From contig JALJEE010002819.1 in assembly GCA_023231475.1 (NCBI GenBank), forward strand, positions 1 through 47,935: a DNA stretch of 47,935 nt. The letters are read 5' to 3'. Position 1 is the stretch's first letter. Each line of letters begins with the position of its first letter. The notes below the pieces were generated by a model that did no database searches, was not told the origin of the DNA, and saw only the letters and a program-made list of their open reading frames with translations. Positions 618 through 47,399 of this stretch are shown here, one piece after another. This stretch comes from Seison nebaliae (Eukaryota). The translations under genes were made by a program, and so were the position numbers.

Positions 618-3600
618 TTATTCTGGTTCCATGATAACTTGAGGATTGTTATTCCATGATACTCCTTCCAGAACCTGAGTAATTTCTGTTTCTAGATTTT
701 CAGTTACTAGTTTCTTCGCCCCATTCAAACTGTCAGTAAATGTTCGCCAATTATGTAACAAGTTCCATTCTTCCCAGAATGAAACTAATGCTTCATAGGC
801 CGCTAAAAAGATGAAATGATTTCATTAGTTTAGATTGAAGAGAGTTAGTAATTAAATAACGTTCGTTCAAATGACTTTGTGCGACACAAAATGGAATTAA
901 CAATCGTTTATTTTCTATTTGAGGATAGAAATAAAGAAGGAATTCATAGAAATTTGTTCCAATCTTGTTTGCTAAAAATCCGTTTACACTGATAACTCGA
1001 CAAAATTTATCTTTAAAGAAATTAATTTAAATTTTTTTTATCAATGCAAAAAATAAACTTCCACAATCTTTTTCTGCGCACATCGCAGTAGTGTCAATTT
1101 GAGGAACTTCAAATTTATTTTCATATTCTACCATAAAACTCTTCCAGTCATAAATTTGCAACCAATGTCGCCAAAACCCTAATAATAGTTCAGATAAATT
1201 GACTGAAAAATATTAAAAAATGACTATTGAGATCGGTTTAAATTAGAGAATGGAAACGGTCAGCTGATGATATTGAAGTATGGACACAAATTGGTACTCT
1301 TGAAGAAATATCTGCATGAAGCTCTTTACCGATTGTATAAGAGAACACTTTCACCATTCGTGCATCAACTTGTATAGCTGCGTTTGCTGTAATGTCGATG
1401 CCGAAACAACTATAGTCAACGGGACATCTTAATGTATCTCGACATTCATCCACATTTGCGATCAATGCATTTCTGCCCTTACCTTTAATTGCCTTCTCTT
1501 GATTAATCCAATCAATTTGATTAGTTAATTCCTCCACATACAACGTTAACATTTGTTCCAACGCTTAAATAATTATATTAAATTCTTCTACAAATTAATT
1601 GAAATACGAACGATAATTGGCTGTGTGTAAACGAACACATAGGTCGTACATTCCAGGTGTATCAGTTTGGAATTTATTAAATATGTCCTGAACACCCAAA
1701 CGTTTTAATACTGATTGGCCAATATTAAGAGCTCGACAAACAAATCCATCGGCACATGATTTATCACATCGTGCAGGTGGTTGACTCACTGACAAATAGG
1801 CAAAATATATTAAGAAGTAAAATTAAAATAATACCGCATTTGCCTTGATGTTCAATGTACTCATTTCCACAAATACATTTATAGTATCCTTTGCCATTTC
1901 GTGAGCAAACTGCATTCTCTGGACATAATTTCCCTGACATTGTGTCTGCTTTGTTATTTCCTGTACATTTATACTCAATGGTACAATTGTAATTGAGAAC
2001 ACTGCCACCCACTGGAACAAAACCATAATCGGCAAATGTACATCCACATGAAGAGGAACGAACACATTTGTTATCGAATACCACATAACCAGATTTACAT
2101 ACACAATCTTCTCTAATTTCTGCTTCTTGTGTAGTACAACCTTTACCTTGAATATCAGCACAAGTTTTAGGACAACCTTGTACAAAAGGTTGGTAATTAC
2201 TATTAGCTGGACATGTGACGGCTATAAAGATGAGGAAGATGAATGAAGATAGAAGAAAAAGGAGAATATGAACAGCAAGGTAATTTCTTATCTTTTCCTC
2301 TCCAGTGAATTGGTTTCTTCAATGCGAGTTGACATTCCTTACCAAGGATTGTGGCATAAGCACACAAGAAGTTCGTTAGTTCGGCTTCATTCTTGTAGTC
2401 GATACTTCCAATATCTTCCATACAGAAACCGAAATTAGTTTGGAAGAGACCCTCAGCTTTCTAGAATGGTAAAATAGAAAATCATTTTTAAAATCTTAAA
2501 TTTTCTGACGAATAATTTAACAGTTCTACATTCATCAAATGCCGAAAATCCAAAGACGTATGAACACACATTTCTGAATTTATCTTTTTGGGACAGTGTT
2601 GGTGGCGATGGTCTTGGTTGTTCTACAGCCACTTCATATTCAGCACCTAATCGTTGACATCTAATAAATTGCGAAATGAATATGAGAAGTTGAAGGAGAA
2701 GAATGAAACGTGAAGAATGGAGTATCATCAACTACTTCATAAGAGTAAGCACCGATCCATTCGTGTCTGTTATTTACACCAGTATCAGCTCCATAAGCGT
2801 CAACAAAATCATTTTCAATTCTTCCGTCATAATTGCCACAGATTCCCATCATATATCCTTTCAAAATGGGTGGTACAACAACACGAACGAAGAAATATGA
2901 ATCGTACAGTACATTCCATCCACAATATTCATGGTTAACATACACTCCGTGCATTGGAGACCAATTGATGGTTACACCACTAGCTAAATTTTCAATTGGA
3001 ACTCGAACAGGCAGTTTTTGATAATAGTTGTTGATCTTTTAAAGGTGTGAAATTTCTTTCAAAAAAATAATCAACTAACAAATACTTTGTTGTCGAATAT
3101 TCGGATAGTATATCTACTGAACTTAATATCAATTAATCTAGTTGAGGTATGTTGATTCTTATGATTTTGACCCATAATTGGAACATTCTTTTGTTCTACT
3201 GCAAATGCGCATGGATGCTAAAATGAAACATAATTACATTGAATTTAAATCAGTTTAAATGCAAAACTCGGAAATCTTTCACGGCCGCTAAAACGTATTT
3301 ACAATGTCCCTGGAAATTAATCTTTCGACCATCGAATGAAATGTAATGGGGGTCTCCTTTAGCTATACAAATTCCTGTTGACAATTTAAATTATATATCC
3401 TAATAATAAAGGATAAATTTACCTGGTTCGTTTTTGCTGATATATTTCACCATCATTGGACGACGAGCATATAAGTCAATTGTGGCAGTCAGTGCTAAGC
3501 CAAGTTCTACTTGAAGAGCAACAGTCATTTTTGCTTCGAACTCGAAACGTAATTGAATATTGAAAGGCAAGTTTATGGTTATTTCTCCTCTAAATCGGAA

Positions 3601-25477: not shown

Positions 25478-26609
25478 TGGATCTCTAAATGAACGGAAAG
25501 AGAATCTATTAAATTTTAATTTGAATGTTAAATATTAAGAATTTAACTTTATTATTATCTTTATATTATTAGATTATTAAGAATCTTTTCTTTAACTTTA
25601 AATAACTTTTCGTGGACAACGTCAAAATGATAATAGTTAAAGAGGTAGAGGATTTTATGTAACATTGTTCTATCTCCTTTTTTGAGAAGTATTTAGAACT
25701 TCAATGACGTCACAATAACCAAAACTATTTATTTTTATCATTCATTCAATGATGATCGAATAAGCCGTGACATATCTCAACAACATACAATTTTCAAGAA
25801 TTTCTTAATACACAGAAATAAGGGTAGAAACTTCCAATCAAGAAATACGTATTGATTAGAGCAAAATGTTTCCTCCATGTTCAATAATTGCCATGTGCAA
25901 ATAAATACTGATATTTCAATAGAATGAAATTATAAAAAAATTTGTTTATGTAAAATGAAATTAATGTTCGTCTCTAATGAAGAAGTTGATCTGTCAGTTA
26001 ATTAGTAGTAAGAACTTGCGCTGAATAATCATGTTCACATATCAATTTTTCAAATGAACAAAGGTGAAAGTATCGAATTTAGATAAATGAAAGTAATCTG
26101 TTTTTCTAAATGTTTCTATTTGCATTCAATGTATAGTGCAATATTCTTTCTAAACGTTGGTTGACATTGAACATTATTTCGATAATATTGAATGATAAGT
26201 TAAAAAGTTGAAGGATTAAATAATTAAGGTTTATATTGGAATAAAATGAATAATGATAATGAGAGAAATAGATAAAGCAAATTCCGGGATTAAACATTGA
26301 AGGAAATAGAATTTGCATGAAAAATTAAGAAGTCTTATTCAGTTGTAATAATCGACAAAGTATAGTCATAATATTTCATAAAATATTATTTATCTTTTGG
26401 ACTTCGAATGAAGAGTGGAGACAGTTATAGACAATCTGACTGACAAGACTGAATAAGGATGAAGATCATAATTGGATTAATCATGAAATTTAAATCATTT
26501 CAAAATATGTCTCGATTCGCATTTACTAAAATGTTGAAGAATTTGAATGAATTATTTCAGGAGAAACATTATGAAAGTTTAAATTATTAACAAACAAATA
26601 TAAATATGA

Positions 26610-26688
26610 CCCTGTAAGCATTTGAATGTCTTGAGAACGTTTTTTTGATGTATATAAACGTTAAAAAAACGTTCAAATGCCAACAGGG
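26610..26688. mobile_element. 79-bp miniature inverted-repeat element with CCC..GGG ends (CMC/EnSpm-like)
   Basis: Left end CCCTGTAAGCATTTGAATGT matches the reverse-complemented right end CCCTGTTGGCATTTGAACGT at 17/20. Three internal AACGTT motifs. No exact target-site duplication. Confidence 0.6.
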
Positions 26689-26710
26689 CAAATGTTGAAG
26701 GGAAACACTT

Positions 26711-29065
26711 TTATGCATTGGAAAATAGACGTCGTTGTAATTCCGTACGAATAGTTGTCAATTCAGTTTCTAAACCACCAAATATTGAAGCATTTTCTTC
26801 TGCTCTTCTTGACAAGTAAGGCAAGACCTCGTCCATTGGGCCGTAAGGGACATATTTGTAGACAGAGTAACCCATCTGTCCTAAAGTATAGGAGATATGA
26901 TCACACATTCCATATAATTGTCCAAAACAAATAATTTTATCATTTGGTCCTATTCCACATTCTTTCATTCGCATAATCGCATCTTCTACTGACTTACTAT
27001 TATGTGTAGCGCACATTACTGATACTTTACCAAGTTGCCGATTACATATCGCATCAATACAAGTATTAAACACTGTTTCATAATTCAAAGTTGTTCCTTC
27101 ATATGATGGTTGAATTGGATCATCATAACCAATCTCTGCTGCTCGAGCTCTCTCCTAAAAATGTTAGTGAAAAAGAATTTCAAAAAACTTCTATTAACAT
27201 GTTCCATATATGCACCACGAACTAATTTGCAACCGAAATAAAAATCTTGGCCAGCTGATAATTCTAAATCTTCACAAATATGCGCCATCGCATCCTTTAA
27301 ATGAATTTCATTATAAATCTTTATTTAAAAAGAAAAGAAACTTGTAAATAACATTGATATGTATTGAAAACGATCGGTTTCTCCTTATTATATTCTCTCA
27401 TCAATTCTATTGTTAATCGACGTATAGCTGGTTGGAAATAACTCTGTTCAGCATCAATCATCAAACGAACATCTTTCGAAACGGCATGCTAAAAAAGAAA
27501 AATTATTTAATAAAATTATTTAAATATCCAACTCTGACAACGGTATCAAGTCGTTTCAAAACATTCCTCATTTCAACCAATTCGTCCGGAGTAAAACCAG
27601 GTAATGATAATCGACCCGTTGAAATATTTGAACGGGTGAAAATTCTACGGAAATCCTGTTTTGGATCCAACAAATTTTGCCATTCGTATAAATCGAAAAT
27701 TCTATAACAAGGAAAATAATGAAGGAAATATTTTCAAAAAAATAACAAACTTGCCCTCATTGACACCGTAAATAGAAACGGATCCATGTTTTTTAATAAC
27801 CGGAATTCCTAATTGTTGTGAATCAGAAACATCATTAAGATTCGTTGTTACAAATTCAGCGTCTTCTTGTGGAACATCGGAGAATAATTTCTTATTATTT
27901 TCCTGTTTCAATTGAAGTAAATATAATTTAGCCATTGCCAATGCTTCCGACAATTGGAGTAGCAATTGGGGTCGTCCTAATGCTGTTAATTTAACAGCAC
28001 AAAATCCAGTGGCATTTGTTATTCCACTAACGGCATCAATGCAAGAGAGAAAAATTCTCATATTCTTATCACATTGTTCCTCACCTTCATAAAAATAAGT
28101 TTTAGCTGCACCAACACCTTGTCGACGATCAGCAAATTTATCATGATATTTGAATTGTGAGAGACCTTCGCCTGATTCAATATCAGAAGCTGGAAGTAAT
28201 TATTAATAGTGAGAGTAATAAGAAAATATTGATTAGAGATCAAAACTCAGCAAAATATAAAGTAACAGATCTGTTGATCATCCACCAATTCCGATTGACA
28301 TGATCTGATGATTAATGAAAAAAAATAAAATTATTCAATATAAAAATAGAAATAAACTGTCTTTCTAATTCGATTGCTTCTGTCGAATCGATATCTTCTT
28401 CTGCAGAATAATCAAAAATCGATTTAACACCATAAGATCTCATCAGATCAATTTTTGATTTTAATTCGTCTGGAGTCTCCCCACCAACAAAATGACCATA
28501 AAATGTCGATTTCATCAAAAGACGGAACCATGATGATGGTAGCAATTTTCTGCAATATTCGATTATCTTCAATATTTAAGGAAAAGAAATGTTCGGAGAG
28601 ATTTCCCATAGAGGAGAGAAAAAAAGAAAAATAATTATTTCTTTAATTTGAAGGAAAATTAATTTTAAAATAAGAATGTGCGTTTTTAGTGCATTCATTC
28701 TGCAATTGCAGAAATAAATGATAACAGAATAAACGTAATAAAAGAATACAAACAGTTTTCTGATTATCAACAATCCATTTAATCTTACAAATTCGAAACA
28801 CGAGATATGCTTGAAACAATTGCGGTGTCGTCTTAGCAATACAGGCCAATTGTGCATTATTGAAATCGATTAATTGATGTTCATTGGCATTGGAGATATC
28901 ACTCGAATGGAGATTTGTAGTTATGGTATTTCCATTTTTCTTCTTATCTTTCGCATGTCGTGTATGAAGCTGATTTATGAAATTGATCGTCGTTCGATTC
29001 ACATACTGGTGTCGTCCGAATAACGAGCGACTTAATAGACGATTAGACATAAATTGTCTTGACAT
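26711..29065 (-). CDS. PRODH: Proline dehydrogenase 1, mitochondrial; 8 exons
   Basis: Arg/Ser-rich transit peptide. Motifs [70 protein letters not shown] and [23 protein letters not shown]. Confidence 0.96.
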
Positions 29066-30321
29066 GAAAAAAGAAAGTGAAAGTTAAAATAAATATATGT
29101 TTTTAATTGTAGGAGAATAATTTCCTTCTTATATCCATCTAAAAATATCAACGAATTTAAGTTCGTTTTTATGACGAAGAGAGTTGAGAAGAATATTTGG
29201 AAAATATTGGGTGTGTTCAATTACTGAATCCACCTCTTTTATGACCTTGATCAACAGAACGATATTGACCAGTAAGAAAATTGAAATATTTCCTCTGTCT
29301 CTAAATTTGAAGATGAAAACACAAACAAAAATTTTGCATAACGCTCTAAACATTTTACGTAACATCAACACAAAATGAAAATAAGGCCACATCTATACAA
29401 GATGCATTAGCGTTAAACTAAGAATTTGAATATATAATTCCTCTCGTCTATTTGGACGATCAATGGAAGGAACTTTTAAGAATTTTGTATATTCTATTCC
29501 ACATCGCTAACTTCACTAACAATTATTAAAATATAATTAATTTGAAACATTTCATATAAACTAAAAACTTTTTTTAATTGCTGCAAATACGTAATATGGG
29601 ATTAAGAGATGTTGTCGGAATACTAGTTTACACATATTTTTAATGTTTTTTCCCATTATTAATTTTTATTTGCGCTTTGTTCGTTACTAATACATCATGT
29701 ACGATGTATAACATGATTTTAATTGCGATTCTCATTCTTGCTAACAAAAATAAGTATATAGGGTTAGAAAGAAAGATTTAGTACCCAGAACTTACATCTT
29801 AAATAATTCATATGAATCTTACATACGTAAAACAAGAATTTAAAAATTTTAAATTCTGTAAATAATAATATATTATAATTTATAAATAAAACAACTTTAA
29901 CTAATACCTAAACTTCACGTTATTGTTAGAATTTATTTAATAAATTAACCAAAACTTTTAAGAAGTTAAGAATAAGAATTTGTCTCACTAACATTTTCTT
30001 CAATCACTAACGTTCTAGGTTCAATTTTTGTATCTTCCAAACAATACGGAGTGAAGGTAAGATATGCACAAAAAGTTAAGTTATATAATAAAAAAACGCT
30101 ACAAAACAAAAAAGGTAACAATGAAAGGTCAAACAAGTATTTCACACAAAACATTTTCTTTGATCTTAATATTTAAATCGCAACTGTAAATTATTCGCTC
30201 GCTGATCGAATATATAAACCCAAGAATTATACTTTGCTGCTAGATTACTCGGATCTTGCTATTTTTATGATAATGAGCGATTCAAGAAAATGTTCTTATA
30301 TTTGAAATGGTTCATATCTTT

Positions 30322-30338
30322 GAGAGAGAGAGAGAGAG
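30322..30338. repeat. (GA)n microsatellite
   Basis: Direct GA dinucleotide run. Confidence 0.8.
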
Positions 30339-30927
30339 AAATAGAAAAGAAAAAGTATGTAGATACCACGGGTGCATTTTTATACAAATTTTCCAATTTT
30401 TAGAAAAAATATAAAAGCCTTTCATACTTACAATTGTTAAATTCATTTCATTATCAAACAACATCAAAAATGACACCGAACACGACACAGAAACATTTGA
30501 TCATTCTGCAAATTTCTACACATTGTCCAATCAACTGCCTTTTTAATTTCTATCGATCCCAACAATTATTTATTCAATTAGGCCAATTTTCTCCTGATCT
30601 TCCAAATTGCCTTCAAAAATTGACATAATTTTCGAAACTGCTGAAGTTCTTTTATGTTACTTACTTTTGATTCTTAGTTATTTTGGTATATTTATCTTAT
30701 TGATTTTTATTTAAAAGAATAGCCTAACTTAAAAGTGATCAATTAGTCGAACTTTAACGAATACTTCCAAAGGGCCAATTGGTTTTTGGGTAAAAATTGA
30801 TTAATTTAGCTCGTATTTAAAAAAATCTTTGTCTATCCTTCGTCCTCAATACAATACAGTTTATATACGGTATCGAACCATTGTTAACCATTTAAATTGA
30901 ATATTTTCTGAATACAAGTTATTTAGT

Positions 30928-31956
30928 CCCAATGAATTTTGAAAACTGATATACTGTTGATAATCATGTAAAAAAAAACGTCATAATAACAAGTGATAAA
31001 TTACTGATAGACAGCATAATAATCACTTGATAAATGAATGATATATCATGTTTTTATTGATGATTATTAAAATTTTTAACCGCATATATATCGGTAATAA
31101 CTGTTGATATACAGGAGATAAAAATGAAGAAAACCGACATTTATGAAGTTTTATAAAAGAACATAAATAAAGAACACATTAGATTTTCAATGATTTTTGA
31201 AGAGCATTATTATTATTCAAATTATTAGTTAGTCAAGTATTATTAATTTAAATTGTAGTTTGTTTTAATAAGATTTTACGGTGGGTTAATAAGTAATAAG
31301 TTTAATAGTATTGTTGAGGTTCGATGGTTTGGTCCAGTTCGTTAGAACTCATTACGATGACAAGATATAAAAAGAAGATATTAAGATTCAGTACTTTATT
31401 AAAGAAAAAGCAATAATAAGAACATCTGTTTTTTCTTCAGCCACTTAGTTGAACTGAATTCACAAGAGTATTGATATTAAATTTAAGAATCATAATTAAA
31501 AATTTGACCCCGTCTCTTTGAGAAGGTGTAGATAAATTTTTTGGTATTGTAATATAGCTCCATACATCGTCTTGGGTTCCAAAAATATCATATATTGCTC
31601 GAACAATCTCTTTCTGTTCATTCTAAAAAAAGGTAATGATTATAAGAACAGTGAAGAATAAACATTACACAATAGAAAATCTTTATCGCAATTCGAAATT
31701 ACGTTCAAAACGTTGGAAATATACTCGGTATTTTCCACTGTTTTTTTAATTTAGAAAATTTTGTTTCACTACCGGAATAATCCTTTCTAGTTAAATTGAT
31801 TATCATACATATATTGAAAATAACTGTTGATATATTACTGATAATTTACTGATTAATCATATTATTATTAGATGATTTATCATACGTTTACTTATGATAA
31901 TCAGATCTGATTATCATTGGTATATTATCTGAAAATCATTGTAGAAATTCATCGGG
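30928..31956. mobile_element. ~1.03-kb non-autonomous CACTA/EnSpm (CMC)-like DNA transposon
   Basis: Terminal inverted repeats CCCAATGAATTT and AAATTCATCGGG match at 11/12. Both ends are flanked by AGT (30925-30927 and 31957-31959), a 3-bp TSD. Both subterminal ~170-bp regions are dense in TGATA/TATCA motifs. Confidence 0.6.
31440..31740 (-). pseudogene. Spliced gene fragment inside the putative transposon, possibly a Ulp1/C48-peptidase-like remnant
   Basis: Exon-like VENTEYISNVLNVISNCDKDFLLCN, then a GTT..TAG intron, then NEQKEIVRAIYDIFG..LSTPSQRDG, then a GT..CAG intron, then FN followed by a stop. Confidence 0.3.
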
Positions 31957-32308
31957 AGTCAGTGCAGAACTAGAAATTAGGAACAATTATTTGAACACAT
32001 ATTTCATATGTAAATCTGAACACTGATAAATCTTAATAATTGAATAATATATAATAATAATGAATCAATTTTTTCTGAACTCAATTTCCTAATTCTAAAC
32101 TAATTTCAAAGAACTTCCTAAAAACAAAATGAGTAGAATTGTCGAAGTAGTTAATTGTTGAAAGAAAAACAGTTAGAAAAATAATTATAAAAATGCGCCA
32201 TTAGAATCTAAATTTACATTTATAGTCGAGTAGTTGAAGTTAGAAGTTGAGGAGAATTAAATATTTTATTGTCAAGGGAAATTATAGCGAATATATTTGG
32301 AATTCTAA

Positions 32309-33775
32309 ATGAAGCAGTTTTTAACGGAAAATTCGATTCGAAGTGCAAAATATGAAGAAAATCACCATTTCAAACATAAAAGACGTGTAGCGATGGGAAT
32401 ACGTAACCAGATCAATTGTCATTACCGAAATGGAAAGTCTTTTATTGTTGAAAAACTGAATAAAATAGAAAGTTATTTTTCAAAGAAGAAGAAACAAAGA
32501 AATGTTATGTGTCAATGTTTAAGGCCAAAATCATTTGAAATGGAAAATGATGAAGAATCTTCAGAAACAATAAAGAACCGATCTGAAAAAACTGGATTAC
32601 TGACCACTGAGAGTTATTGGGAAAAACTCTTCGATCAATCAAGAAGAAAAAATGGTTTAAATGTTCAATCCAAATATTTGTACAATGATTCTTTTGAAAT
32701 TGAGCCTTTAAGTGAGAATTGTTTCTTCTCGAATGTAAATGATTTTGTTGAGAACGAAATAATGGAAGAATCGATTTGTGGACAAATAGAATCAATTAAT
32801 CAGAACCGAATTGAAATGTTTAAACATTCAAATTTCAACCATAATATGAACAACAACCAGGAAGATGAATGGAATAATAAAGATAATTTCGATAGCAACC
32901 ATGAAAATAATGATTATTTTTCTCAGAATAATATTAGCGTTGAGATGAAAAAGGATAAACCGACAATGACTTTTCATGACATTTTTTTGAATTATTTAGG
33001 AGACCTGTGTGAAAATGAATTTGATTCTCCGAAACCTGATTCCGGAAATAATATTAACGAAATTCACTTACATAACAATGAATTAGACAGTGAGAACAGT
33101 TATCGGAGAAACCATCATAAACGTGACTATAATGAGGAAATTCCATATACGGATGAAGATCGAAAGGATCATGGAACATATTACGATTGTGATTACAATG
33201 AGCATGTTGAAGAATTTTGTGCTGGTGATTTGAACCACAATGAAGTTATATACTTTAGTTGTGAGAATCATGTTGATTTTAGCGACGATGAAGGTATTCC
33301 TAAATCTGATGATGAAGGTTCGAATAATGGAAGTTTGGGTGGAAATTCTAATGAAATTATCTATAGAAATATTCCCGGAAATATTGGTGGGAATTTTTGT
33401 GGAAATTTGGATGGAAATTTGAGTGGAAATATTGGTGGAAATGTCGATGACGATTTGGGTGGAAATTTTGGTCGAAATAACGGTGGTACTAATGGGAAAA
33501 ATTTGGAAATCTACGATGAGAAAGATATAGAGAAAGGTGAGAACGTTACAAAAAACGGTTCAATGGTGAATGATAAATCAAGGATCGGTAAAACAGAATT
33601 TGGCTTAATGGTTTTGGTGGGAATGATCTGTGCATTGGTTGAAATGATTCATCTTTCTCTTTTTATTCGGGTTCCTATGTTTCCTTTTCATTATATCAAT
33701 TATTATTATATATCGTTTATTTTGTTATTTATCTGTTGCTTTTGTGTACTTTGCTTATTTCTAAAAATTAAATAA
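32309..33775 (+). CDS. Unknown 488-aa Asn/Asp/Glu-rich protein with GNxx repeats and two C-terminal hydrophobic segments; single exon
   Basis: A 1.47-kb uninterrupted ORF in AT-rich DNA. C-terminal hydrophobic segments FGLMVLVGMICALV and YYYISFILLFICCFCVLCLFL. No recognisable domain. Confidence 0.65.
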   Translation: MKQFLTENSIRSAKYEENHHFKHKRRVAMGIRNQINCHYRNGKSFIVEKLNKIESYFSKKKKQRNVMCQCLRPKSFEMENDEESSETIKNRSEKTGLLTTESYWEKLFDQSRRKNGLNVQSKYLYNDSFEIEPLSENCFFSNVNDFVENEIMEESICGQIESINQNRIEMFKHSNFNHNMNNNQEDEWNNKDNFDSNHENNDYFSQNNISVEMKKDKPTMTFHDIFLNYLGDLCENEFDSPKPDSGNNINEIHLHNNELDSENSYRRNHHKRDYNEEIPYTDEDRKDHGTYYDCDYNEHVEEFCAGDLNHNEVIYFSCENHVDFSDDEGIPKSDDEGSNNGSLGGNSNEIIYRNIPGNIGGNFCGNLDGNLSGNIGGNVDDDLGGNFGRNNGGTNGKNLEIYDEKDIEKGENVTKNGSMVNDKSRIGKTEFGLMVLVGMICALVEMIHLSLFIRVPMFPFHYINYYYISFILLFICCFCVLCLFLKIK

Positions 33776-34686
33776 AAACAATTTTTCTGCTATAAAAAGA
33801 CTGTACATTATTATTAGGTATATTAAGTATGAACTACAGGTAACAAATAAAGGTAAATTTTAAATATAATTTAACAATTAGCAAGACAATTCTGTTAAAT
33901 AATTTTTCAAGAATGTATGAATTTTATGGTCTTTATAATATTATGGCACAGCATTTAAATGATTGAAAGCTAAATTGCAGAGACTTTACATACTAGTTAG
34001 ATTTTCGATGATCGTTAAACAACCATGGAAAGAGATTTAAAATTGAGTTTTTCGAGTTAAAACTTGACTTGGTATAGGTATAGATATAAATAATAAACAG
34101 AATAAAAATCTAACAATAAATAAATAAGAATAAATAACATTGTAAGACGAACCTAAAGATTGAACTATTCTTTATGTTCCAGAATCAGCCATTGGACTAT
34201 ATTGATTTCTGATGAGCTTTGCAAAACCAAACATTTATAGTGCTTGAGGGCATTAGTGTGCAACTATTATGTATAAAAAATGGTGGAAAGAATTCGATAT
34301 AATTTGTTTTGAAATATTTGACTTGGTCGGAGAATAATTCAACGGAAAATGATGAAAAAAATTCATTGATGATCAAATTTCCTATAAATTCGAGAGAATC
34401 ACGTTGAGATAACAATGCATGAATGTGGAATGTCGAATAATGTTCTTTTTGACGAAGCGATGCAAGCGTTTAACAGAAAATTTTACACATTTTACCAAAT
34501 TGTTAGTACACTTTTAATTTGGCACAAAAAAGTACGTTTTTTGTCGAAAATTTTATGGTTTTTATTATCTTATAATAATTATCTTTTATGATTTCCTATA
34601 ACTCAATATTCCATCTTTCTTTCAAATTTTATAAAATTGAATTTCATTCATGATTATCATCAATTAATTAAAGAAATCACTAATTG

Positions 34687-35400
34687 TTAGTTAAATTTAG
34701 AAAGTTTCATCGTTTCAATCGCAAGTTTATTATATTCTATTCTTAATTCGTTATCTTCTTGTTTCCATAATTCATCCGAACCTTCAACCGGTAATTGTGC
34801 AACAATATCTTGAAGCGAATGGAAAATATTTGTAAATTGTTTATTAACATTTTTTATACATGTTTCAATATCGGTGATTGTTGAGGATAAATGTTCTGTG
34901 GAACGATTATTCTTCCGTTGGACATTGATTACATTCTCATAAATTAATTGGAATTGGGAGGATTTTTCTTGACATCTATCAAGTGATTTATATTGTTTGG
35001 AAACGATTAACGAATCTCCTTCAATCATATATTGGTGGAATCTTAATGAATATAATGTCAGTGGTGAATATCGTGAAGTGACTTCTTCGTTAATCTTCTC
35101 TTCATTTTTATTAAATGAAATTTTCGGATCTACGTGGGAAGAATTATTTTGATCGAATATACTTCTCAAATTAAATATCGTCGATGATGAATTCATTCGA
35201 CTCTTTATTGATTGATTTGGAATTAATGGGGGACAGACAGATAATTTATAAAAATCATCAATTTCTTTCAATGCTGAACCACGATCAATTTCCGATTGTT
35301 CATTTATTGTTGTCGACGTTTCACCCGAATGAACAACACGAATATCGGGATGATATTTGGAATTTGGTGGCACGTCTACAGTAGAATTTTCATTTCCCAT
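34687..35400 (-). CDS. BORCS5: BLOC-1-related complex subunit 5 (myrlysin/LOH12CR1)-like; single exon
   Basis: Myristoylation-type start MGNENS (human MGSEQS, from recall). DIRVV, LKEI..PPLI and LYSLRFHQY segments, then a coiled coil ending QLP, collinear with BORCS5. Confidence 0.7.
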   Translation of the reverse strand: MGNENSTVDVPPNSKYHPDIRVVHSGETSTTINEQSEIDRGSALKEIDDFYKLSVCPPLIPNQSIKSRMNSSSTIFNLRSIFDQNNSSHVDPKISFNKNEEKINEEVTSRYSPLTLYSLRFHQYMIEGDSLIVSKQYKSLDRCQEKSSQFQLIYENVINVQRKNNRSTEHLSSTITDIETCIKNVNKQFTNIFHSLQDIVAQLPVEGSDELWKQEDNELRIEYNKLAIETMKLSKFN

Positions 35401-36311
35401 TGCCTTCCCAAACAGAATAGAAAGTAAAATTTTTATTTGACGGGAAGTATCCCAAACAATTAAATGTTGATAATTATTTCCTAAAAGAAATTATATCTTA
35501 GCTATTATTAAGCTAAATTTTCAAAGAAAACTTTTCCAAAATTTATTTTGAAATTTATCTTAATTATACCAATCGGATTCTTTTTGCCAATCATTAACGA
35601 TGATTTTTACCTAAAAAATTTTTTTTTGTTATTGCACATAATTTTTTTTATCTGTTACTCAATAAGTTTAGCGATAAATTATAGCTAAAGGTAAATAGAT
35701 CTACTAAAACATTTGATGTTACCCTGAAATTTTTTTTATTCGAATAAACGTCATGTTTTTGATATAGAGTTTAATTCGATATGAATTACTTAAATGGTTT
35801 TTACTAAAGCTTTTAATTTTTTAGATTAATTTCAAGTTTTTTCCTTGAAAATTTCTTTGATAAATTGTATAAACCAGAAAGTGGTAAAATAATGTTAAAG
35901 TTTTGTTGAAAAGTGAATGAGAATTGTTTTAGTTCTACGAAAAGAGTAGACCTGTTGGATTTTCATTTTCTGTTTGTTTTCGTTTTAATATGGTAGTATC
36001 TAAAGAGAATATTGACATGAATGAAAAACGGAAATCAAACGACTCTCCCAATACGAACAATAAGAAGATGACAGATAGTAAACAAAGGAAAATGGAAAAA
36101 ACTACTGAAATGAAAGTTCAAGATCTACCGAAAAAGTTTCATTTTTCAGTTTTAATTATTATTGGACTAAACAATTTTGGGGCTATTTCTTTTACTTTTA
36201 GATACTATCGAACATCAGGAATATGATTGTATGCAAAAAACAAAAAATATGTTGCGAACCTAAAAGTTCTTTATCAATAATTCTAACAATTTAAGTAAAG
36301 TTTCAATAAAT

Positions 36312-36418
36312 CTAAAACTGCTTTTAATTTCAATGATTCTAAAAATTTAAATAAAATCTCAATTATTCTAAAACTTCTTTTAATTTCAATGATTCTAAAA
36401 GTTTAAATAAAATTTCAA
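36312..36418. repeat. Tandem duplication with 56-bp period, ~2 copies
   Basis: CTAAAACT(G/T)CTTTTAATTTCAATGATTCTAAAA..TTTAAATAAAAT occurs at 36312 and 36368. Confidence 0.8.
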
Positions 36419-36470
36419 AAAATAAATTGCTAATAAGCATCAGAAATACTGTGGGGTCAATTTGGGAATT

Positions 36471-38927
36471 TTAAGTTTCTAAAGTTGTTTCTTCTTCATC
36501 ATCATCGTCGTCATCGTCGTCTTCATCAAATTCTTTATTATTAATATTTTTCACTTCATTTTCTTCATCTAACTCTTTGAATGGAGTACTACGTCCACTG
36601 TTGTCACTTGAAAGTGATGTGGTTGATCCGGTTCTCATGAGAATTGATGGCGTTGGTGTAACAGCTAAAATATCCATATTATTCTTAGCGTCACCCAAAC
36701 AATTATTGGCCGTTCGTACATGTGGTGTACTTATATGAATATCTGGATATGTTCGATTAATTGCCATAGTTCTCGCTTTATAATAATAAATGCCAAGAGT
36801 ATGCCAATCTAATAATTCACTTAATCGTTCTGTTCGATTTCGTTGAATGATACGTTGTCGTCGATTCAATTTAGAGAAACTATATAAAATTTTAGTTAAT
36901 TGATCGGCTGTTTCATGTGGTGAACGGAATCGTCGATCAACTACATAAATTCCATATGGTTCCGTTTCACTTAATAACTCTTCCATAAAAGCTCCAAATC
37001 CCGATACGTTTGTCGATACATTCGGTATTCCCATAACCGTACATTCAGCCGGAGTATAACCCCAAGGTTCGTAATATGAAGCGAAAACACCCAAATGGCA
37101 ACCGCGAACAAATTCTTCATAAGAAATTGGAAATAATGGATTAGTTTCATTAAGGAATTCGGGATGATAAATTATTTTCACACGATCTGTTGCCAAATTG
37201 AAAAGTTTATGTTTTCGTAGGGCATTCAATATCTTATCATTCGCATCATCAATTACATTATGTGTACAAATTGGTGGTAATGTATTTCGTTTGGATGATA
37301 AGAGACATTTCTTTATACTAATCAAATCACTTGCCTTCAATATATTTTGTTCGGTTGGAAGATAACCTTTGAGACATGACTCATATAATCGTTCACCAAT
37401 CACTTTTTGTAAGTCGTTCAAGTTATCTCTCAATTGTTTAGTGATTGCTTGACCTTGCAATGATTCCACATTGAAATTATTCGTTTTAGTTGGAAATATT
37501 AGGAAAGCGATTACCGTTATATCGCTGTTTGATTCGATTAATAAACGATTTAATCTCGCTAATGATTCCAGAAATAGATCGACTCCTTTATTCTCAAATT
37601 CATAGCGACCAGCACTAAACACATAAATCGTTTTATCTAATGAAAAATCATAATGGCCAAAAAAATGACCACGGACAAATTCGTTAATTTTATCTTTACT
37701 TTTCGCATGCAAATTTTGAAATTCATGTAACGCCGTATATTTCTTCACATTCAATCCATTCGGGGTAACAACATCTGCTTCCCGTTTCAATAAATATTTT
37801 GCTTCTAATGCTGTTATGTTGGAGACGGTACAGAATACATGAGAACAATGAGCGGCCGCACGTTCTAAACAATATTTATGATAAATTTGTCTTTCACCTG
37901 CCTCCCTATCCGTATCGAATTTGGAGAGATTATTATAAAAATCAACTTTTCCTGCACATAAATATCTGCCCAACATCGTCGCATGTGTACTGAAGATGGT
38001 GGCAATGGCAATTTTCCATGTTCGAATGAAAAGTAAACCGATTCCTGATTGCCATTCATGATAATGGGCTACGATACAATTCTTCTCTCGGAAACGTTGC
38101 AAATAATTTTGTGTTTCAATATTTTTTTGAAAATCGTCTTTCATTTGCATAGCAACAACAGCTGACAAACTGTTGAGTCTTTGTAATTTCATCGTTGAAT
38201 CAAATTGACATGATAATTGATCAGTCTCTTCGTCATCAGTATAATGAGAATATTCTGATTCTGTATCGGAATCACCTGTTTTCATAACAATTGGTAATTT
38301 AGTTTTAATATAAGTCTCTCGCAATTCACTTAATTGTCTCTGAAATTCTTGAAGGAACCAAGCAGTTGCAGCACCGAAGAGAATGGCATCATTACATTCA
38401 TCATCATATTCAGGAAGAATAATTTTAGAATTTGTAAATAAATCTTTCCTCCATTCAGGTAAGCGATGACGAATTGAATCTAAATGAAATAAAACTACTT
38501 GAGGATAACCATCAACAAGCCAATTGCCATACGAAGCGTCTAATCCATTCTTTCTTAAGATTTCGATTGTTATCGCCACAGGATTATGAGGATTCGTCGC
38601 CGTCTTTAAATCTACTTCCAATCGAACATTCTTCTCAGTGTACTTTCCCAACATGACATATCGTTCTCCATATTCACTGACGGTAACAGGAACTTTAGTT
38701 CGAATTACTGTGTAAATCCCACCAACTACCCAGAAAATGAAGAAAGTAAATGAGAAATGAAAGTAAAATAAAAAATAAAATTTACCTTTATTCGCTACTT
38801 CATTTGATATCTCAAATAACCATCTATTCATCAATATCGAATTGTGACCATTATCGAGAAATTGGTCGAAGGCATAACCTTCGATTTGTTTCAAGCTTTT
38901 CGCCGCTTTCTTTATTCGATTTAACAT
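36471..38927 (-). CDS. GYS: Glycogen [starch] synthase (GT3); 2 exons, intron 38726-38785
   Basis: EVANK/VGGIYTV is split by a 60-nt intron. Motifs HYHEWQSG, HATMLGRYLCAG, AGRYEFENKG, RGCHLGVFASYYEPWGYTPAEC and RRQRIIQRNRTERLS. Confidence 0.97.
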   Translation of the reverse strand: MLNRIKKAAKSLKQIEGYAFDQFLDNGHNSILMNRWLFEISNEVANKGKFYFLFYFHFSFTFFIFWVVGGIYTVIRTKVPVTVSEYGERYVMLGKYTEKNVRLEVDLKTATNPHNPVAITIEILRKNGLDASYGNWLVDGYPQVVLFHLDSIRHRLPEWRKDLFTNSKIILPEYDDECNDAILFGAATAWFLQEFQRQLSELRETYIKTKLPIVMKTGDSDTESEYSHYTDDEETDQLSCQFDSTMKLQRLNSLSAVVAMQMKDDFQKNIETQNYLQRFREKNCIVAHYHEWQSGIGLLFIRTWKIAIATIFSTHATMLGRYLCAGKVDFYNNLSKFDTDREAGERQIYHKYCLERAAAHCSHVFCTVSNITALEAKYLLKREADVVTPNGLNVKKYTALHEFQNLHAKSKDKINEFVRGHFFGHYDFSLDKTIYVFSAGRYEFENKGVDLFLESLARLNRLLIESNSDITVIAFLIFPTKTNNFNVESLQGQAITKQLRDNLNDLQKVIGERLYESCLKGYLPTEQNILKASDLISIKKCLLSSKRNTLPPICTHNVIDDANDKILNALRKHKLFNLATDRVKIIYHPEFLNETNPLFPISYEEFVRGCHLGVFASYYEPWGYTPAECTVMGIPNVSTNVSGFGAFMEELLSETEPYGIYVVDRRFRSPHETADQLTKILYSFSKLNRRQRIIQRNRTERLSELLDWHTLGIYYYKARTMAINRTYPDIHISTPHVRTANNCLGDAKNNMDILAVTPTPSILMRTGSTTSLSSDNSGRSTPFKELDEENEVKNINNKEFDEDDDDDDDDEEETTLET

Positions 38928-39779
38928 TCTCTTTCTTGAAGAAATTATCCTTTTAATTTTTTTTCCAATCCAATCAAAAAATTAAGAGAAATTTAATTTT
39001 TATCAAGTAGAGAATAATCGTTAAAGAAAGTTAAACGAATTTCCCTTTATCAATTATTTAAAAGAAACAATTCTGGTTCAGATAATTAACTCCCCATATG
39101 TAATAATATTGGGCTACTTCTTCTAAATTGTTGTACTTTCGAACGTTCCAACTTAATCCTAATATAAATTAATAACTCTAACTTAATAAATTAATATAAA
39201 TCTTAATCTAACTAATACCTAATACCTCTCCAACATAATTTACTATCAATTGAAAAGATGAGTTAATGTCACAATTGTCAATATGAACTACGGTAGAAAA
39301 TCCGACTGACTTCAAAACTCAATGTTATAAAATTAACATAGGGATTTAGGATAGAAAGGATTTAATTTCAACATATTAATCAAATCATTGGGATGATAAA
39401 GTTAATTAATTGATTTTATTTTTATTTTAGGAATATATCTTGTCAATCTTTTTCCTTCACATTGTTGTTATTATTTTTATATTATTTGAAAATTTTCTAA
39501 TATTATATAGAACAGATTATAAGAAATTTGAAATATAATATCAGACGATTTGGCTCTTAAGAACAGCCAAATATCAAACTCATTTATTATAACTGTTTCA
39601 ATTCACAGTTACTTTATGTTATTGAAAGAAATCCTAGAAAACGGTCAATTATGTAATTGAACCTTTAATCAAAAAGAATTGTTTATAATTTGTTTATAAT
39701 TTTGCTGTTCAAAAATATATTTGATAACGGATTGATAAAATAAATTGAGCGAAATAGAAAAAAGAATGGAATGATGAAA

Positions 39780-42700
39780 CTAATAATTATTCCAACGAAG
39801 TTTCTTCAGCAATTTCAAGGAAGACATATTCGTTTTATGATTTTGTTGTTCTTCGTCAATGATTACTCCTTGTAAATGTTCATTTAGACCACGATAAACA
39901 ACAATATTTTCTTCATCTAAATTAAGTGCATCATCTACCAACGGTTCATTAACCGATAAATGAGTTCTTCGATCCTTATCGACATGTTGGAGAGCAACTC
40001 TCTTCAAATAATTCGAATTCATTAATTGTTGGATTGTCGGTTTTTTCCATCTAACAATAAGATAACAATATTAATTAAGAAACAGTAATTAACTATCAAA
40101 ATTATAATGACTAACAGTTTAAGCATAAGAGATGAAGTAACAACGGAGACAGATGATAATGCCATAGCAGCAGCAGCCATCCATGGTTGTAAAGCAATTT
40201 TAACTGGAAGAAATAAACCGGCGGCTAAAGGAATTCCTATCATATTGTAAATAATAGCGAAGAAATAATTGATTCGAATTCGTTTCATTGTTGCTTTCGA
40301 TAAATCGATCGCTGCAATTACGTCTAATAAATTTGAATGCATAAGAACAATATCAGCAGCTTCGATTGCTACATCAGCCCCAGTACCAATTGCAATTCCA
40401 ACATTTGCTTGAGCTAATGCTGGTGAGTCATTAACACCATCACCCACCATAGCTATTTTATGAGATGAAGGAAATTGTTTTTGCAATTGACGAATCTTTT
40501 CTGCTTTTTGTGATGGGAGAACTTCGGCAAAAACAGTTCGAATACCGATTTGTTTAGCAACAGCTTTCGCTGTACGAACATTATCTCCTGTCAATAAAAT
40601 TACATTAATTTTCATTTCATGTTCGAGTGTATGAAGTGCAAGAAAAGCTTCATTCTTTATTGGATCCATTATAGTTAATAAACATTCAATTGATCCATTA
40701 ATTGAACAGAAGACAACTGTACAACCATTCATCTCTTCTTCTCTTCCTTTATAATCGATTTCTCCATTTAATTCAATATTATGATTCTTCATCAATTCAC
40801 GATTTCCAATTAGAATATCATATGTATCATTTCCATCTTCTAACAACTGAGTTGTTGAATCATTTTTAGATTCTAAAATATCGATAATAATCGATGATCG
40901 ATTAGTTGGCACTGGCACATCAGTATCAGAGACTGGTGATAATAACAGAGGATCATTTAATGGTTGTTTATCTGAAAAATGCTTATTCAATTTAATTTGA
41001 CATTTAATTCCACATCCTGGTAATAATTGGAAATTTTCACTTGCTCCAAAAACTTTCTCATCTAAATAATTTTCACAAAATTTCACAATTGCCGTCGCTA
41101 AAGGATGTTCGGAATTACGTTCGGCTGTCCCTATTAATGTTAATAATTTGGTCAAATTCGTTTTTGAATTTCTTCGTAGAATTTTCGTTACTTTTGGTTG
41201 TCCTTTTGTTATTGTTCCAGTTTTATCGAATACTATCGTTTTCGTTTTATGAGCAGTCTCTAATGGTTCTCCACCTTTGATTAGGATTCCTTTTGTTGCA
41301 CCTGCACCTGTTCCCACCATAATTGCTGTTGGAGTAGCTAAGCCTAAAGCACAAGGACAAGCGATAGACAAAACGGTGATTGCGAATCGAAATGAATATT
41401 CGAAAATATTCTCCATTTTATTTCCTGTAAGAAATATTGATTGTTCATGTTTACCGAAAAGCCAAGACGTTTGTTTTGATAGCCAACCATAGAAATAATA
41501 ACCGATAAATATCCAAGTGAATAAAGTGACAAGACTACAGATACAAATGAATGGAACGAAAACACCAGCAACACGATCAGCCATTGCTTGAATTGGTGCT
41601 TTGGATGTTTGAGCTTCTTCTACTAATCGTACTATCTGATTAATGGCCGTGTCATTTCCAACATTGGTAGCTTTCATAAATATTAAACCATTCTGATTAA
41701 TTGTTCCACCTAATAATTGAGATTTTCCACTTTTCTCTACAGGCATCGATTCTCCACTTAACATCGATTCATCAACAGATGTTATTCCTTTGATAACGAA
41801 ACCATCAACAGGAATTTTCGTTCCAGGTAAAACTTTCAAAATATCGCCTCGATGAATTAATTGAACGTCGATATTTCTTTCTTGCATATCTTCCTTCTCA
41901 TAATTCTCAACAAGAATTCCTTCTATTGCTTGCAATTGAATCAATTTCGATAATGCTTCAGATGTTTTCCCTTTAGCGATATATTCTAACCAACGTCCTA
42001 ATGTCACGAAAACCATCAACATTGGTGTTGTATCGAAAAAAGTGATTGGTGAGTATTTCCGTCTTAATGTCATTGATATGATTAGAATGATAATAGAATA
42101 TGAATATGAAATAGTCGTTGCTAAAACAATGAGAACATCCATATTTAATGAACAATTCCGTATGGCAATATATGCATGTCTATAAAATTGTCTTCCCCCA
42201 TAAAATTGGACAGGTGTCGCCAATAAGAATAATAGGAGATTAGGTAAATCTAATCCATCCATAATCATCACATTATGATAATGATGAGATGTTACCATGA
42301 AGAATATCATAACAATCAATGCAGGAACACCGAAAATAAGTGAAGCTAAAAAACTTCTTTTCCAAATTTTTTTCTGTTCATCATGACTTAAATTACTAAT
42401 AATATCATTGTGTTGATCGGCGAGAAATGCATCGAATCCCATCGATTCAATTTCTTCAATGATTTCTCGTGGTCCTGTATAAAAAGGATCATATTGAACT
42501 CGACCGGAATTTGTTGTTAAATTAACTTGAATCGATTGAATTCCTTTAACATTCTTCACATTCGACTCGATCGTATTAACACAAGATGAACATGTCATTC
42601 CATTTATTCTCAATTTAATTTCATGAAATTGATTCATCGAACTCTTTGTCAATATCGTCGTTTTGAATGACAATTGCTTCTCAATCATATCTCTAATCTC

Positions 42701-43848
42701 TTCATCATTAATTCTTTCTTTATCATATCGAACTTCTGCTTTCCCTGAGATCAATGAAACAATAATCGATTCAACTCCATCAATTTTCTTTACAATTCTT
42801 TCAACATTTGACACACAAGATGAACATGTCATTCCAGATATTTTCAAAAAACAAACAGCATTTTCAGTAGTAAACGACGTCTCTGCTGTATTCATTGAGA
42901 AAGTGGAAAATTTCCTTTGTTTCTCCAATTTCTTATCATTGTCGATCTCTTTCAAATATTTAAATTTTCCAGTTTCATAATAGAATGGGAAATAATTGAA
43001 ATTTCTTTTGAAATTATTTAGTGTTTGTCCAGAGAAGAAGAAAGACGAATGATATGTTATACTATTGTCAAATAATTTATTCAAATTCCACATAACTTTC
43101 TTGTCAACAAATTTCTTCAAGTTCTCCACAATTTTCTTCGACTCATTCTTCCTCAATGTGATGAATTGAAGTCGAATGAATTTATGTTTGTCAATATGCT
43201 CATGGATCTTAATATCGATCAGATCAAGAATTGTTGAATAATTGATAATTGATGAGGAGCGTATACTTCCAATAATTTTAGTAGTCATTTCATTGACCGA
43301 TTGGAATTGAGGAGATATATTGAATAAAAGTATCAAAGTAGAATAAATTTTTCTTTCACTTTTCTCATTCGATGATGAGTCTCGAAGTATTGTCCTTTCC
43401 AATTCTGTTTCTGGAAAATATAATTTATTCAATATCTTCCCATTATTGTTCTCTTTTTCTTCTTCTTCTTCTTATTTCAACAATATTCATTTTTATTAGA
43501 AAAACAAAATAAAACTTTTTCCTTCAAAATAAACAGATGTGTTCGGTATTAAAATTTCATACGTCTCAATTAGAAAGACATCGAATCCGAGATCATAAAT
43601 TATTTCCTGTAAATCTTCCCAACCAACTTTCTCATTGTCATGCAAAATTAAACACGTTTCAAATTCGAGAGAAATCTTTAAAATAAAAAAGTTGACAATT
43701 TGCTTGAGAAAATGTGAATAACTTCTATGAATAAAACTGCAGAAATTTCTTGTAATGAAATCTCAATGTTCTTTGTACAAGAAGAACATGTCATTCCAAT
43801 TACGACGAAATCCGTCGAGAATAAATGATTGATATCCGTCATATCCAT
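39780..43848 (-). CDS. ATP7: Copper-transporting P1B-type ATPase (ATP7A/B-like); 4 exons
   Basis: Three GMTCSSC metal-binding domains. Motifs SGESMP, CPC, DKTGT, SEHPL, TGDN, GDGVNDSPALA, YN and MALSSVSVV. First in-frame ATG after an upstream stop is at 43848. The last exon ends at 39780. Confidence 0.96.
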
Positions 43849-45269
43849 ATCGATGGTATTTGTCAATGATAATTATTCATTTGAATGAGAAATAATCAAA
43901 AATAAAAAGAAAAAAATCTTTAATTTAATCACATTAGCTAATGATTTGAGAGGAGGAAATATTCTTACTAATATTTCTCCGATGATTAGTAAATCAACGA
44001 TTTTATGTAAATAGTACTTTGTACTGTAAATAGGATGAAAACCGGGGGTGGTTAAATTACATAAAGAAATTCATGTTTCACAATTCGTTGATGAAAATAA
44101 AAAGAAACAACATTTAACTTTATCGAAATTTATAAAGGAGTTTATTTGTTATTAGAATTTAATTTACCGTATCATTATATAATCATAAAATTAATACATG
44201 GCATGTCTCCAATAAATACGTTGCTATCAAAATGAAGATATTTAGTAAACTTTCTTATTAAAAAACTATAAGAAAACATTAATAGTTTCTTAAGTAAATG
44301 ATAATTGAAGTTTCATCAATATTTAGTTAAGTGAAATTAAGTAAGTAGTCTCTGATGTTCAACATTTAAAATATAATTAAAGAACTGAATTAATCGATTT
44401 CATATCATCTTTATAAAGTTATCACATACCCATTATTATCATGCCGCCCACCATTAATTGATAGAAAGAAATATTTTTAATAACAATTTTAATCAGAATC
44501 ATTAACAAGAAGTATTTACTTCCACGAAATGAAGTTATTAAGAAGTTAGCGACCATTCAAAATTGGATGTTTTTGATGAAGATTATTGAAATATTTAAAT
44601 CACGATTTTATTGGATATTTGATTCATGGATGAATCAGAGAATTTAACATCAATTTTCGATAGTTCATTCTCTAAGTGTAAGTTGAAAGCTTCAGTTTGA
44701 CTCTCATATCAATGAGACTTGTGTTGATGTTGATGACCAAGTCTACATGACTGGTCCTTCTTACCCAAACGAAATACATTTACCCGAATGAAATATGATG
44801 ATTGTCGGGAATCAAGTATTCGAAGGAGAATTCATCTATCAATTCTCTTGCATTGTACATTGTAGAATGTAGATAGCATGTAGATAGCAATATTCAGAGT
44901 ATTATTCTTTGCATTAAAACTTATCAAATGCTAACAAGTCAATGTTTATCAGTTATAGGTATTAAAAGGTGGTGATCGCAATAAACTAAACCATGATGTA
45001 AAATAATTTATGGCTGATCCAGAAATGCAAAAATACCACTTTTAAAAAATGCTCGATAAAACCGCAAATAAAAGAAGGAAAATCGAATAGAGAATAGGAA
45101 ATATTAATTTTATTCATTATACAAAATGATTCAAATAATTCATTAAATATGTAAGATCAAAATTTAATTTTCAAAAAAAATAGTTATATTTGAATGAAAG
45201 AATTTTCTTTCTATTTATATAATGGAAAAGATAATAATTTATATTTAAATTTTAAAAAAAAATTTTACC

Positions 45270-47397: not shown

Positions 47398-47399
47398 AT

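Follow-up and report, generated by a model that had tools for sequence, protein, structure and literature searches.

The window analysed here comprises positions 1 to 47,935 of contig JALJEE010002819.1 (assembly GCA_023231475.1) of Seison nebaliae, a species belonging to the Seisonidea within the Rotifera. The contig is AT-rich, with a G+C content of 27-45%, and a Pfam search of the window revealed genes of animal type. Seven of these genes contain the introns considered here, namely a giant protein with VWD, C8 and TIL domains, an SH2 tyrosine phosphatase (PTP), RME-8 (DNAJC13), a beta-1,4-galactosyltransferase (B4GALT), a proline dehydrogenase (PRODH), a glycogen synthase (GYS) and a copper ATPase (ATP7) (Table 1). 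The canonical metazoan U2-type donor, MAG/GTRAGT (the slash marks the exon-intron boundary), pairs with the 5' end of the U1 small nuclear RNA (snRNA), ACUUACCUG, and few features of animal splice sites are as constant as the purine at position +3. The 51 introns of the seven genes exhibit a different start: 47 begin with GTT and four with GTA, while GTG and GTC are absent. At the DNA level, the use of GTT donors is confirmed as real and robust, and the statement that the donor code of this contig differs from that of other animals is, as far as it can be read from the sequence, right.

All junctions were placed from DNA and protein and not from RNA reads. Three deposited Seison proteins (RME-8, PRODH and the giant) were mapped letter for letter onto the window, and for each junction we enumerated all donor/acceptor pairs that reproduce the deposited protein. 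Sliding of the boundary left 1-7 equivalent cuts per junction, and exactly one GT-AG solution was found for each of the 39 junctions obtained in this way. Thirty-six of them start with GTT and three with GTA (RME-8, eight GTT and one GTA; PRODH, seven GTT; giant, 21 GTT and two GTA). The other 12 junctions (PTP, B4GALT, GYS and ATP7; 11 GTT and one GTA) were placed by reading frame, by Pfam and PDB matches and partly by residue spacings of SHP2, B4GALT1 and ATP7 that we assumed to hold. A single GT-AG candidate was available for six of the 12 (B4GALT 24584, 24419 and 25380, PTP 14120 and 13844, and GYS 38785; introns are named here by their donor position), and for PTP 14290 the candidate is unique only if an assumed Met start is accepted. 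The remaining five were chosen among the alternatives counted in Table 1 (B4GALT 24267, PTP 12147 and ATP7 43722, 40115 and 43515). At PTP 12147, GTT was preferred to GTG because it keeps what we take to be the spacing of SHP2-type phosphatases. At B4GALT 24267, the choice follows the fit in length to the B4GALT1 sequence, which is partly presumed beyond the aligned part.

An enumeration that is free of annotation was also carried out, in which any open-frame GT-AG pair was accepted within a margin of 10 codons to either side. It covered 47 introns, the four least certain ones being excluded. Only GTT candidates were found for 21 introns and no GTT candidate for four, all of which are GTA introns, while the remaining 22 were mixed. 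Five introns had a single candidate, which is GTT in four of them. Thus, even if all mixed cases are counted against GTT, 21 of 25 forced cases are still GTT. Homology leads to the same placements. The eight N-terminal junctions of RME-8 all lie in a gap-free alignment with the proteins of other animals, the ninth intron being outside this comparison. The PRODH alignment is conserved and free of gaps at the junctions after residues 104, 389, 438 and 470 and nearly so after residue 333, whereas around residues 174 and 187 the protein is too variable for homology to be informative. With regard to composition, GTT makes up 41% of all GTN trinucleotides in the window, as against 43 of 47 donors (p = 5e-13). 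A T at +3 in 43 of 47 introns also exceeds the 0.485 share of T in intron interiors (p = 4e-10), and A occurs at +3 in only four of them, against a background of 0.33, and G in none. Base composition was therefore rejected as the cause of GTT, and the enumeration, the homology alignment and the composition test together rule out hand placement as well.

These results reproduce, gene by gene, the tally of the initial annotation, which had proposed GTT starts for 21 of 23 introns in the giant, 4/4 in PTP, 8/9 in RME-8, 4/4 in B4GALT, 7/7 in PRODH, 3/3 in ATP7 and 0/1 in GYS. The three donors that it quoted as examples (15406, 15529 and 16856) are as it gave them, and its description of GTT instead of GTR donors holds, at the DNA level, for every multi-intron gene on the contig. 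Four read runs covering the stretch are DNA, as their depth is even across exons and introns and they contain no joints of intron size. A codon-usage gene parser of our own was dropped after it had overlooked small exons in RME-8 and PRODH. A VWD exon query found no homologue among longer proteins, and the deposited giant was then recovered by a search of representative proteins. A search of genome contigs with an RME-8 alignment found no rotifer relative.

Table 1. Genes of the window and their introns. Donors are written exon/intron and are followed by the last three intron bases. All introns of the giant are placed by exact protein map with a single GT-AG solution; introns 1-8 of RME-8 are placed by exact protein map and by alignment with other animals without indels.
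Feature	Position	Strand	Donor...acceptor	Length (nt)	Basis or remark
VWD/C8/TIL giant, SNEBB_010041	about 675-11403	minus			Pfam, deposited protein
SH2 tyrosine phosphatase (PTP)	about 11900-14300	minus			Pfam
RME-8/DNAJC13, SNEBB_010043	15347-23507	plus			Pfam, deposited protein
B4GALT	about 23900-25450	minus			Pfam
PRODH, SNEBB_010045	26714-29065	minus			Pfam, deposited protein
GYS	about 36474-38920	minus			Pfam
ATP7	about 39800-43800	minus			Pfam
Giant intron	803..860	minus	AAC/GTTATT...TAG	58	
Giant intron	1011..1058	minus	GAA/GTTTAT...AAG	48	
Giant intron	1203..1257	minus	ACC/GTTTCC...CAG	55	
Giant intron	1564..1611	minus	ATC/GTTCGT...AAG	48	
Giant intron	1789..1834	minus	GCG/GTATTA...CAG	46	GTA class; no GTT candidate in enumeration
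Giant intron	2222..2273	minus	GCT/GTTCAT...TAG	52	
Giant intron	2461..2521	minus	ACT/GTTAAA...TAG	61	
Giant intron	2661..2709	minus	CAC/GTTTCA...TAG	49	sole candidate in enumeration
Giant intron	3036..3079	minus	TTT/GTTAGT...AAG	44	
Giant intron	3218..3267	minus	CGA/GTTTTG...TAG	50	
Giant intron	3375..3422	minus	CAG/GTAAAT...CAG	48	GTA class; no GTT candidate in enumeration
Giant intron	3826..3878	minus	GCA/GTTTAT...TAG	53	
Giant intron	7204..7255	minus	CAA/GTTTAA...TAG	52	
Giant intron	7620..7665	minus	GCA/GTTGGA...TAG	46	
Giant intron	7850..7900	minus	AAA/GTTTAT...TAG	51	
Giant intron	8113..8163	minus	GCC/GTTAAC...TAG	51	
Giant intron	8493..8545	minus	ATC/GTTAGT...TAG	53	
Giant intron	8860..8909	minus	TAC/GTTAGT...TAG	50	
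Giant intron	9394..9452	minus	TTT/GTTAGT...TAG	59	
Giant intron	9989..10043	minus	CGA/GTTATT...AAG	55	
Giant intron	10253..10303	minus	GTC/GTTAAT...TAG	51	
Giant intron	10636..10690	minus	TGT/GTTAGT...AAG	55	
Giant intron	10806..10865	minus	ATG/GTTTTG...TAG	60	
PTP intron	12079..12147	minus	TCG/GTTAGG...CAG	69	2 candidates (GTT 69 nt, GTG 87 nt)
PTP intron	13755..13844	minus	TGA/GTTTCT...TAG	90	sole candidate
PTP intron	14070..14120	minus	TAA/GTTAGA...AAG	51	sole candidate
PTP intron, 5' end	14241..14290	minus	TCG/GTTTGT...AAG	50	less certain; sole candidate given assumed Met
RME-8 intron 1	15406..15452	plus	AAA/GTTTGA...TAG	47	
RME-8 intron 2	15529..15571	plus	CGA/GTTAAA...TAG	43	
RME-8 intron 3	15758..15807	plus	AGA/GTTAAA...TAG	50	
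RME-8 intron 4	16152..16211	plus	CGG/GTTCCA...TAG	60	
RME-8 intron 5	16276..16330	plus	TCA/GTTTTA...TAG	55	
RME-8 intron 6	16519..16573	plus	TCG/GTTTTT...TAG	55	sole candidate in enumeration
RME-8 intron 7	16660..16774	plus	GAG/GTTAAT...CAG	115	sole candidate in enumeration
RME-8 intron 8	16856..16910	plus	CAA/GTTCGT...TAG	55	
RME-8 intron 9	23307..23412	plus	CAG/GTAATT...AAG	106	GTA class; exact map, sole candidate in enumeration
B4GALT intron	24225..24267	minus	CGT/GTTCCC...TAG	43	ambiguous; 5 candidates (1 GTG, 2 GTT, 2 GTC)
B4GALT intron	24382..24419	minus	TCG/GTTTAA...CAG	38	sole candidate between anchors
B4GALT intron	24543..24584	minus	TAA/GTTTAA...AAG	42	sole candidate; preceding exon aligns to B4GALT1 chains
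B4GALT intron, 5' part	25330..25380	minus	GCC/GTTAGT...CAG	51	less certain; sole candidate, without homology support
PRODH intron 7	27155..27198	minus	CAT/GTTAAT...TAG	44	exact map, homology
PRODH intron 6	27295..27341	minus	CAA/GTTTCT...AAG	47	exact map, homology
PRODH intron 5	27489..27532	minus	AGA/GTTGGA...TAG	44	exact map, homology
PRODH intron 4	27702..27750	minus	CAA/GTTTGT...TAG	49	exact map, homology
PRODH intron 3	28190..28266	minus	TCT/GTTACT...CAG	77	exact map; variable region
PRODH intron 2	28305..28357	minus	ACA/GTTTAT...CAG	53	exact map; sole candidate in enumeration
PRODH intron 1	28567..28753	minus	ACT/GTTTGT...AAG	187	exact map, homology
GYS intron	38726..38785	minus	AAG/GTAAAT...TAG	60	GTA class; sole candidate; Pfam Glycogen_syn on exon
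ATP7 intron, 3' end	40051..40115	minus	ACT/GTTAGT...TAG	65	less certain; 7 candidates, 6 GTT
ATP7 intron	43471..43515	minus	AAA/GTTTTA...AAG	45	ambiguous; 21 candidates, unconserved linker
ATP7 intron, first HMA domain	43676..43722	minus	GAA/GTTATT...AAG	47	3 candidates, all GTT

All 51 introns have GT-AG ends. They are short (38-187 nt, median 51, n=47) and contain 81% A+T, their interiors comprising 33% A, 11% C, 7% G and 48.5% T. Over all 51, A is found at position -1 in 21 introns, G in 11, T in 10 and C in nine, whereas +3 is occupied by T in 47 and by A in four. Position +4 is mainly A (23) or T (21), +5 is A or G in 17 introns each, the latter in agreement with the earlier estimate of a +5 G in about a third, and +6 is T in 30, A in 15 and G in three. 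With 41%, T at +4 does not exceed its share in intron interiors, and A is slightly enriched there; more generally, positions +4 to +10 are near the intron background, so the T at +3 is specifically selected. The commonest donor hexamer, GTTAGT, accounts for only seven of the 51 introns, and 26 different hexamers occur among 47 donors. As G is about fivefold enriched at +5 and not at +6, the register is the canonical one, i.e. GTRAGT with T in place of R. The mean match to CAG/GTAAGT is 4.3/9, and against a reference with T at +3 it is higher, at 5.1/9. A register shifted by one base (+1), for which the mean match is 4.1/9, was rejected on this comparison and on the scarcity of G at +6.

The acceptors are TAG in 29 introns, AAG in 13 and CAG in nine, with no G at -3. 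A pyrimidine tract precedes the 3' AG, T being present in 31-35 of 47 introns at positions -7 to -5. The motif YTRAY, mostly as TTAAT, occurs 8-40 nt upstream of the AG in 27 of 47 introns, which is expected by chance in AT-rich sequence. Introns of the U12 type were rejected, since the donor (A/G)TATCCTT was found in none of the 51, and so were introner-like mobile introns, as an all-against-all blastn of the 51 introns gave short AT-rich matches, the best being 41 nt at 83%. Five large exons, 16.8 kb in total, supplied 268 unused GTT trinucleotides as decoys. Downstream of real GTT donors, the next 35 bases contain 81% A+T and 49% T, compared with 62% and 29% after the decoys, and this separates the two sets with an area under the curve (AUC) of 0.94. 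The composition of the short intron thus likely carries much of the donor specificity, in the manner of intron definition. It does not account for the T at +3 itself.

The four GTA donors differ from the GTT donors on the exon side. As had been noticed at first reading, all four are preceded by an exonic G (CAG, CAG, AAG and GCG), which is the case for only 6 of 43 GTT donors (Fisher p = 0.0012); A is the base at -1 before 20 of these 43. A match of 7-8/9 to CAG/GTAAGT is reached by three of the GTA donors and by no other donor, the fourth, at 1834, matching at 5/9. Reading by a canonical U1 would leave the GTT donors as the ones in need of exon-side help, and the opposite is seen. Since the GTA donors, and not the mismatched GTT donors, carry this help, a reader that prefers U at +3 is favoured. 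Such a reader would produce the observed coupling of GTA to an exonic G, a point that rests on four introns.

Several other features of the genes and of their surroundings can be described. RME-8 has eight short introns in its first 1.5 kb (15406-16910), followed by a single 6.4-kb exon (16913-23306), and the 3' parts of the conserved genes seem to have lost introns heavily, with one intron left in GYS and three in ATP7. Loss from the 3' parts would fit a loss via reverse-transcribed copies. The GYS intron is in frame and free of stops, and its retention would add 20 residues inside a conserved N-terminal motif. In the giant, one exon of 1108 codons (3879-7202, minus) is of low complexity and rich in Gly, Ala, Val and Asn, without a Pfam match, and its G+C content reaches 45%. 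Directly downstream of the GYS stop, an AT-rich tandem repeat with a period of 27-56 bases is present in 2.7 to about 5 copies (36274-36423). Just past the PRODH stop, each of the four DNA runs covers 80 bases (26609-26688) at 10-13 times the surrounding depth, and this is where many contigs stop; it looks like a short, dispersed high-copy repeat. Two open frames, at 32309-33772 (plus, 488 codons) and at 34690-35490 (minus, 267 codons), have no convincing Pfam family, and the former contains a 12-base tandem repeat at 33366-33486. Another tandem repeat, of 12 to 15 bases in about 30-40 copies, lies at 45256-46149 (plus), where it encodes a Gly-Gly-Tyr-rich product in an open frame of 298 codons and the skew of G over C is strong. 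Finally, short frames at 47170-47597 (minus) match DDE_3 transposase and a BED zinc finger and are probably what is left of a transposon at the end of the contig.

The donors indicate that intron starts are likely recognised differently by the splicing machinery of Seison. Our preferred explanation, which we put forward tentatively and with slightly less than even confidence, is that the U at +3 is read by a co-evolved part of the spliceosome, most probably a U1 snRNA with a predicted A opposite +3. For the broader proposition that a co-evolved or an additional U1 is involved, the chances are about even. Such a U1 would carry ACUAAC instead of ACUUAC, the A replacing the U opposite +3. It would treat GTA as a weak form that needs extra exon-side pairing, while the T-rich body of the short intron would supply most of the remaining specificity. 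A canonical U1 may persist beside the variant. The initial annotation had suggested three possible causes, namely a compensatory U1, an altered recognition by U6 or U1C, and definition by intron length.

Several observations weigh against a co-evolved U1. The variant is itself predicted from the donors, and the window contains no U1 gene: no snRNA gene was found in it at gathering scores, and none at E values up to 1, where only two weak unrelated hits appeared. All 120 U1-like loci found in metagenomes carry the canonical ACTTAC; they belong to other organisms, and the search pattern required T or A there. As +4 to +6 are weakly conserved and positions -1 and -2 of the GTT class are not G and A, even a variant U1 would form few base pairs with these donors, and the main reader may be another component. 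To this are added the small number of introns behind the coupling of GTA to an exonic G and the placement of the junctions from DNA and protein.

The main rival, which we consider rather unlikely, is that U1 is canonical and that the U at +3 is imposed later, probably at the step where U6 replaces U1, or by Prp8 and U5 contacts that dominate in very short introns. At the U6 step, the ACAGA box could offer its G to the U at +3 for a wobble pair and its A residues to U at +2 and +4. In Entamoeba, GUUUGU extends pairing with the ACAGA box of U6 over positions 2-6 (bioRxiv 10.1101/2022.06.08.495308). The T at +4, G at +5 and T at +6 in Seison (21, 17 and 30 of 51 introns) would suit U6 as well as U1, and the weak exon-side consensus of the GTT donors speaks against strong pairing with U1. 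However, the T at +4 stays below the intron background, where the slight enrichment is of A. With a canonical U1, moreover, the mismatch of GTT should bring a compensating G at -1 or +5, and it is the GTA donors that carry the G at -1 instead.

Two classes of U1 could also be imagined, a canonical one serving the strong AG/GTAA minority and a variant one serving the GTT majority. The two donor classes with their coupled exon ends, GTA always after G and GTT often after A, would agree with this. However, there are just four GTA donors, and a single variant U1 with compensation explains them equally, so we regard two classes as improbable. A similarly low probability is given to the absence of any specific reader of +3, in which case the donors would have decayed to GT followed by T-rich sequence and the short introns would be recognised by length and composition. 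The separation of real GTT donors from decoys, which comes mainly from the next 35 bases, and the little information found beyond +3 point in this direction. They are opposed by the T at +3 itself, present in 91% of the introns, and by the depletion there of A, which makes up a third of the intron bases. That biased placement of introns, in the initial annotation or by gene-annotation software, produced the pattern is very improbable, for although the junctions are not drawn from RNA and 22 of 47 introns have in-frame alternatives other than GTT within 10 codons, GTT is found under every alternative in 21 and GTA in four, and the RME-8 and PRODH junctions match other animals residue for residue.

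An animal in which the purine at +3 has been replaced by U in about nine of ten introns offers a natural experiment on the joint evolution of introns and snRNAs, a question approached so far only in intron-poor protists such as Entamoeba. As Seison keeps many introns, a genome-wide conversion would have required an intermediate stage with both donor types functional, and the AG/GTA minority may be a remnant of it. With a co-evolved U1, Seison could be the first animal with a retuned 5' splice site, in which an A opposite +3 arose in U1, canonical U1 was perhaps kept for the small AG/GTA class and thousands of ancestral GTR donors were turned into GTT in place; this fuller scenario remains the more speculative part of our proposal. 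In practice, programs for gene finding and splice-site scoring that have been trained on GTRAGT will put Seison introns in the wrong place. As a character, the GTT donors may further be of use for the disputed relations of Seisonidea, Acanthocephala and other rotifers.

When compared with metazoan U2-type introns, those of Seison share the GT-AG ends, the T-rich 3' end and the +5 G and +6 T in the same register, and the four GTA donors are ordinary. They differ by the purine at +3, found in only 4 of 51, and by the G at -1, present in 11 of 51, whereas animals usually have a G there in the large majority of donors. Donors in a register shifted by +1 have reportedly been described in human genes by Roca and Krainer in 2009. 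These also begin with GTT, but they require GTTRAGT with a G at +6, in contrast to the Seison donors, where G is at +6 in 3 of 51 and at +5 in 17 of 51.

The Seison genome paper (PMC8351084) describes Seison as an epizoic marine member of the Rotifera/Syndermata with a small AT-rich genome. In a literature search that included passages of that paper on introns, splicing and RNA-seq and did not extend to Hagemann et al. 2024 (Hydrobiologia), whose annotation may bear on the claim, we found no printed report of a GTT donor in any animal or of a donor consensus for Seison or any rotifer. The words intron, splic and snRNA do not occur in PMC12256650.

The nearest printed case is Entamoeba, in which 88-90% of introns start with GUUUGU and the 5' end of U1 is changed to ACAAAC (5'-AACAAAC-3') (Roy and Bowser, bioRxiv 10.1101/2022.06.08.495308). 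Both systems exhibit a near-universal U at +3 (47 of 51 in Seison), both keep the +5 G and +6 U in the ordinary register, and in both the change is lineage-wide and not confined to a minority class. Entamoeba is, in contrast, an intron-poor protist with a rigid motif of six to seven bases and a U at +4, whereas Seison is an animal in which +4 is A or T about equally and nothing past +3 is rigid. The changed U1 is demonstrated in Entamoeba and only predicted for Seison. In Anaeramoeba pumila, another intron-poor protist, 22 introns are described, with GTTAGT donors and a highly conserved motif and branch point (bioRxiv 10.64898/2026.04.11.717937). GTTAGT is also the commonest hexamer of Seison. 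Anaeramoeba pumila combines few introns with a rigid motif, whereas the introns of Seison are numerous and their motif is loose, the change being confined to +3.

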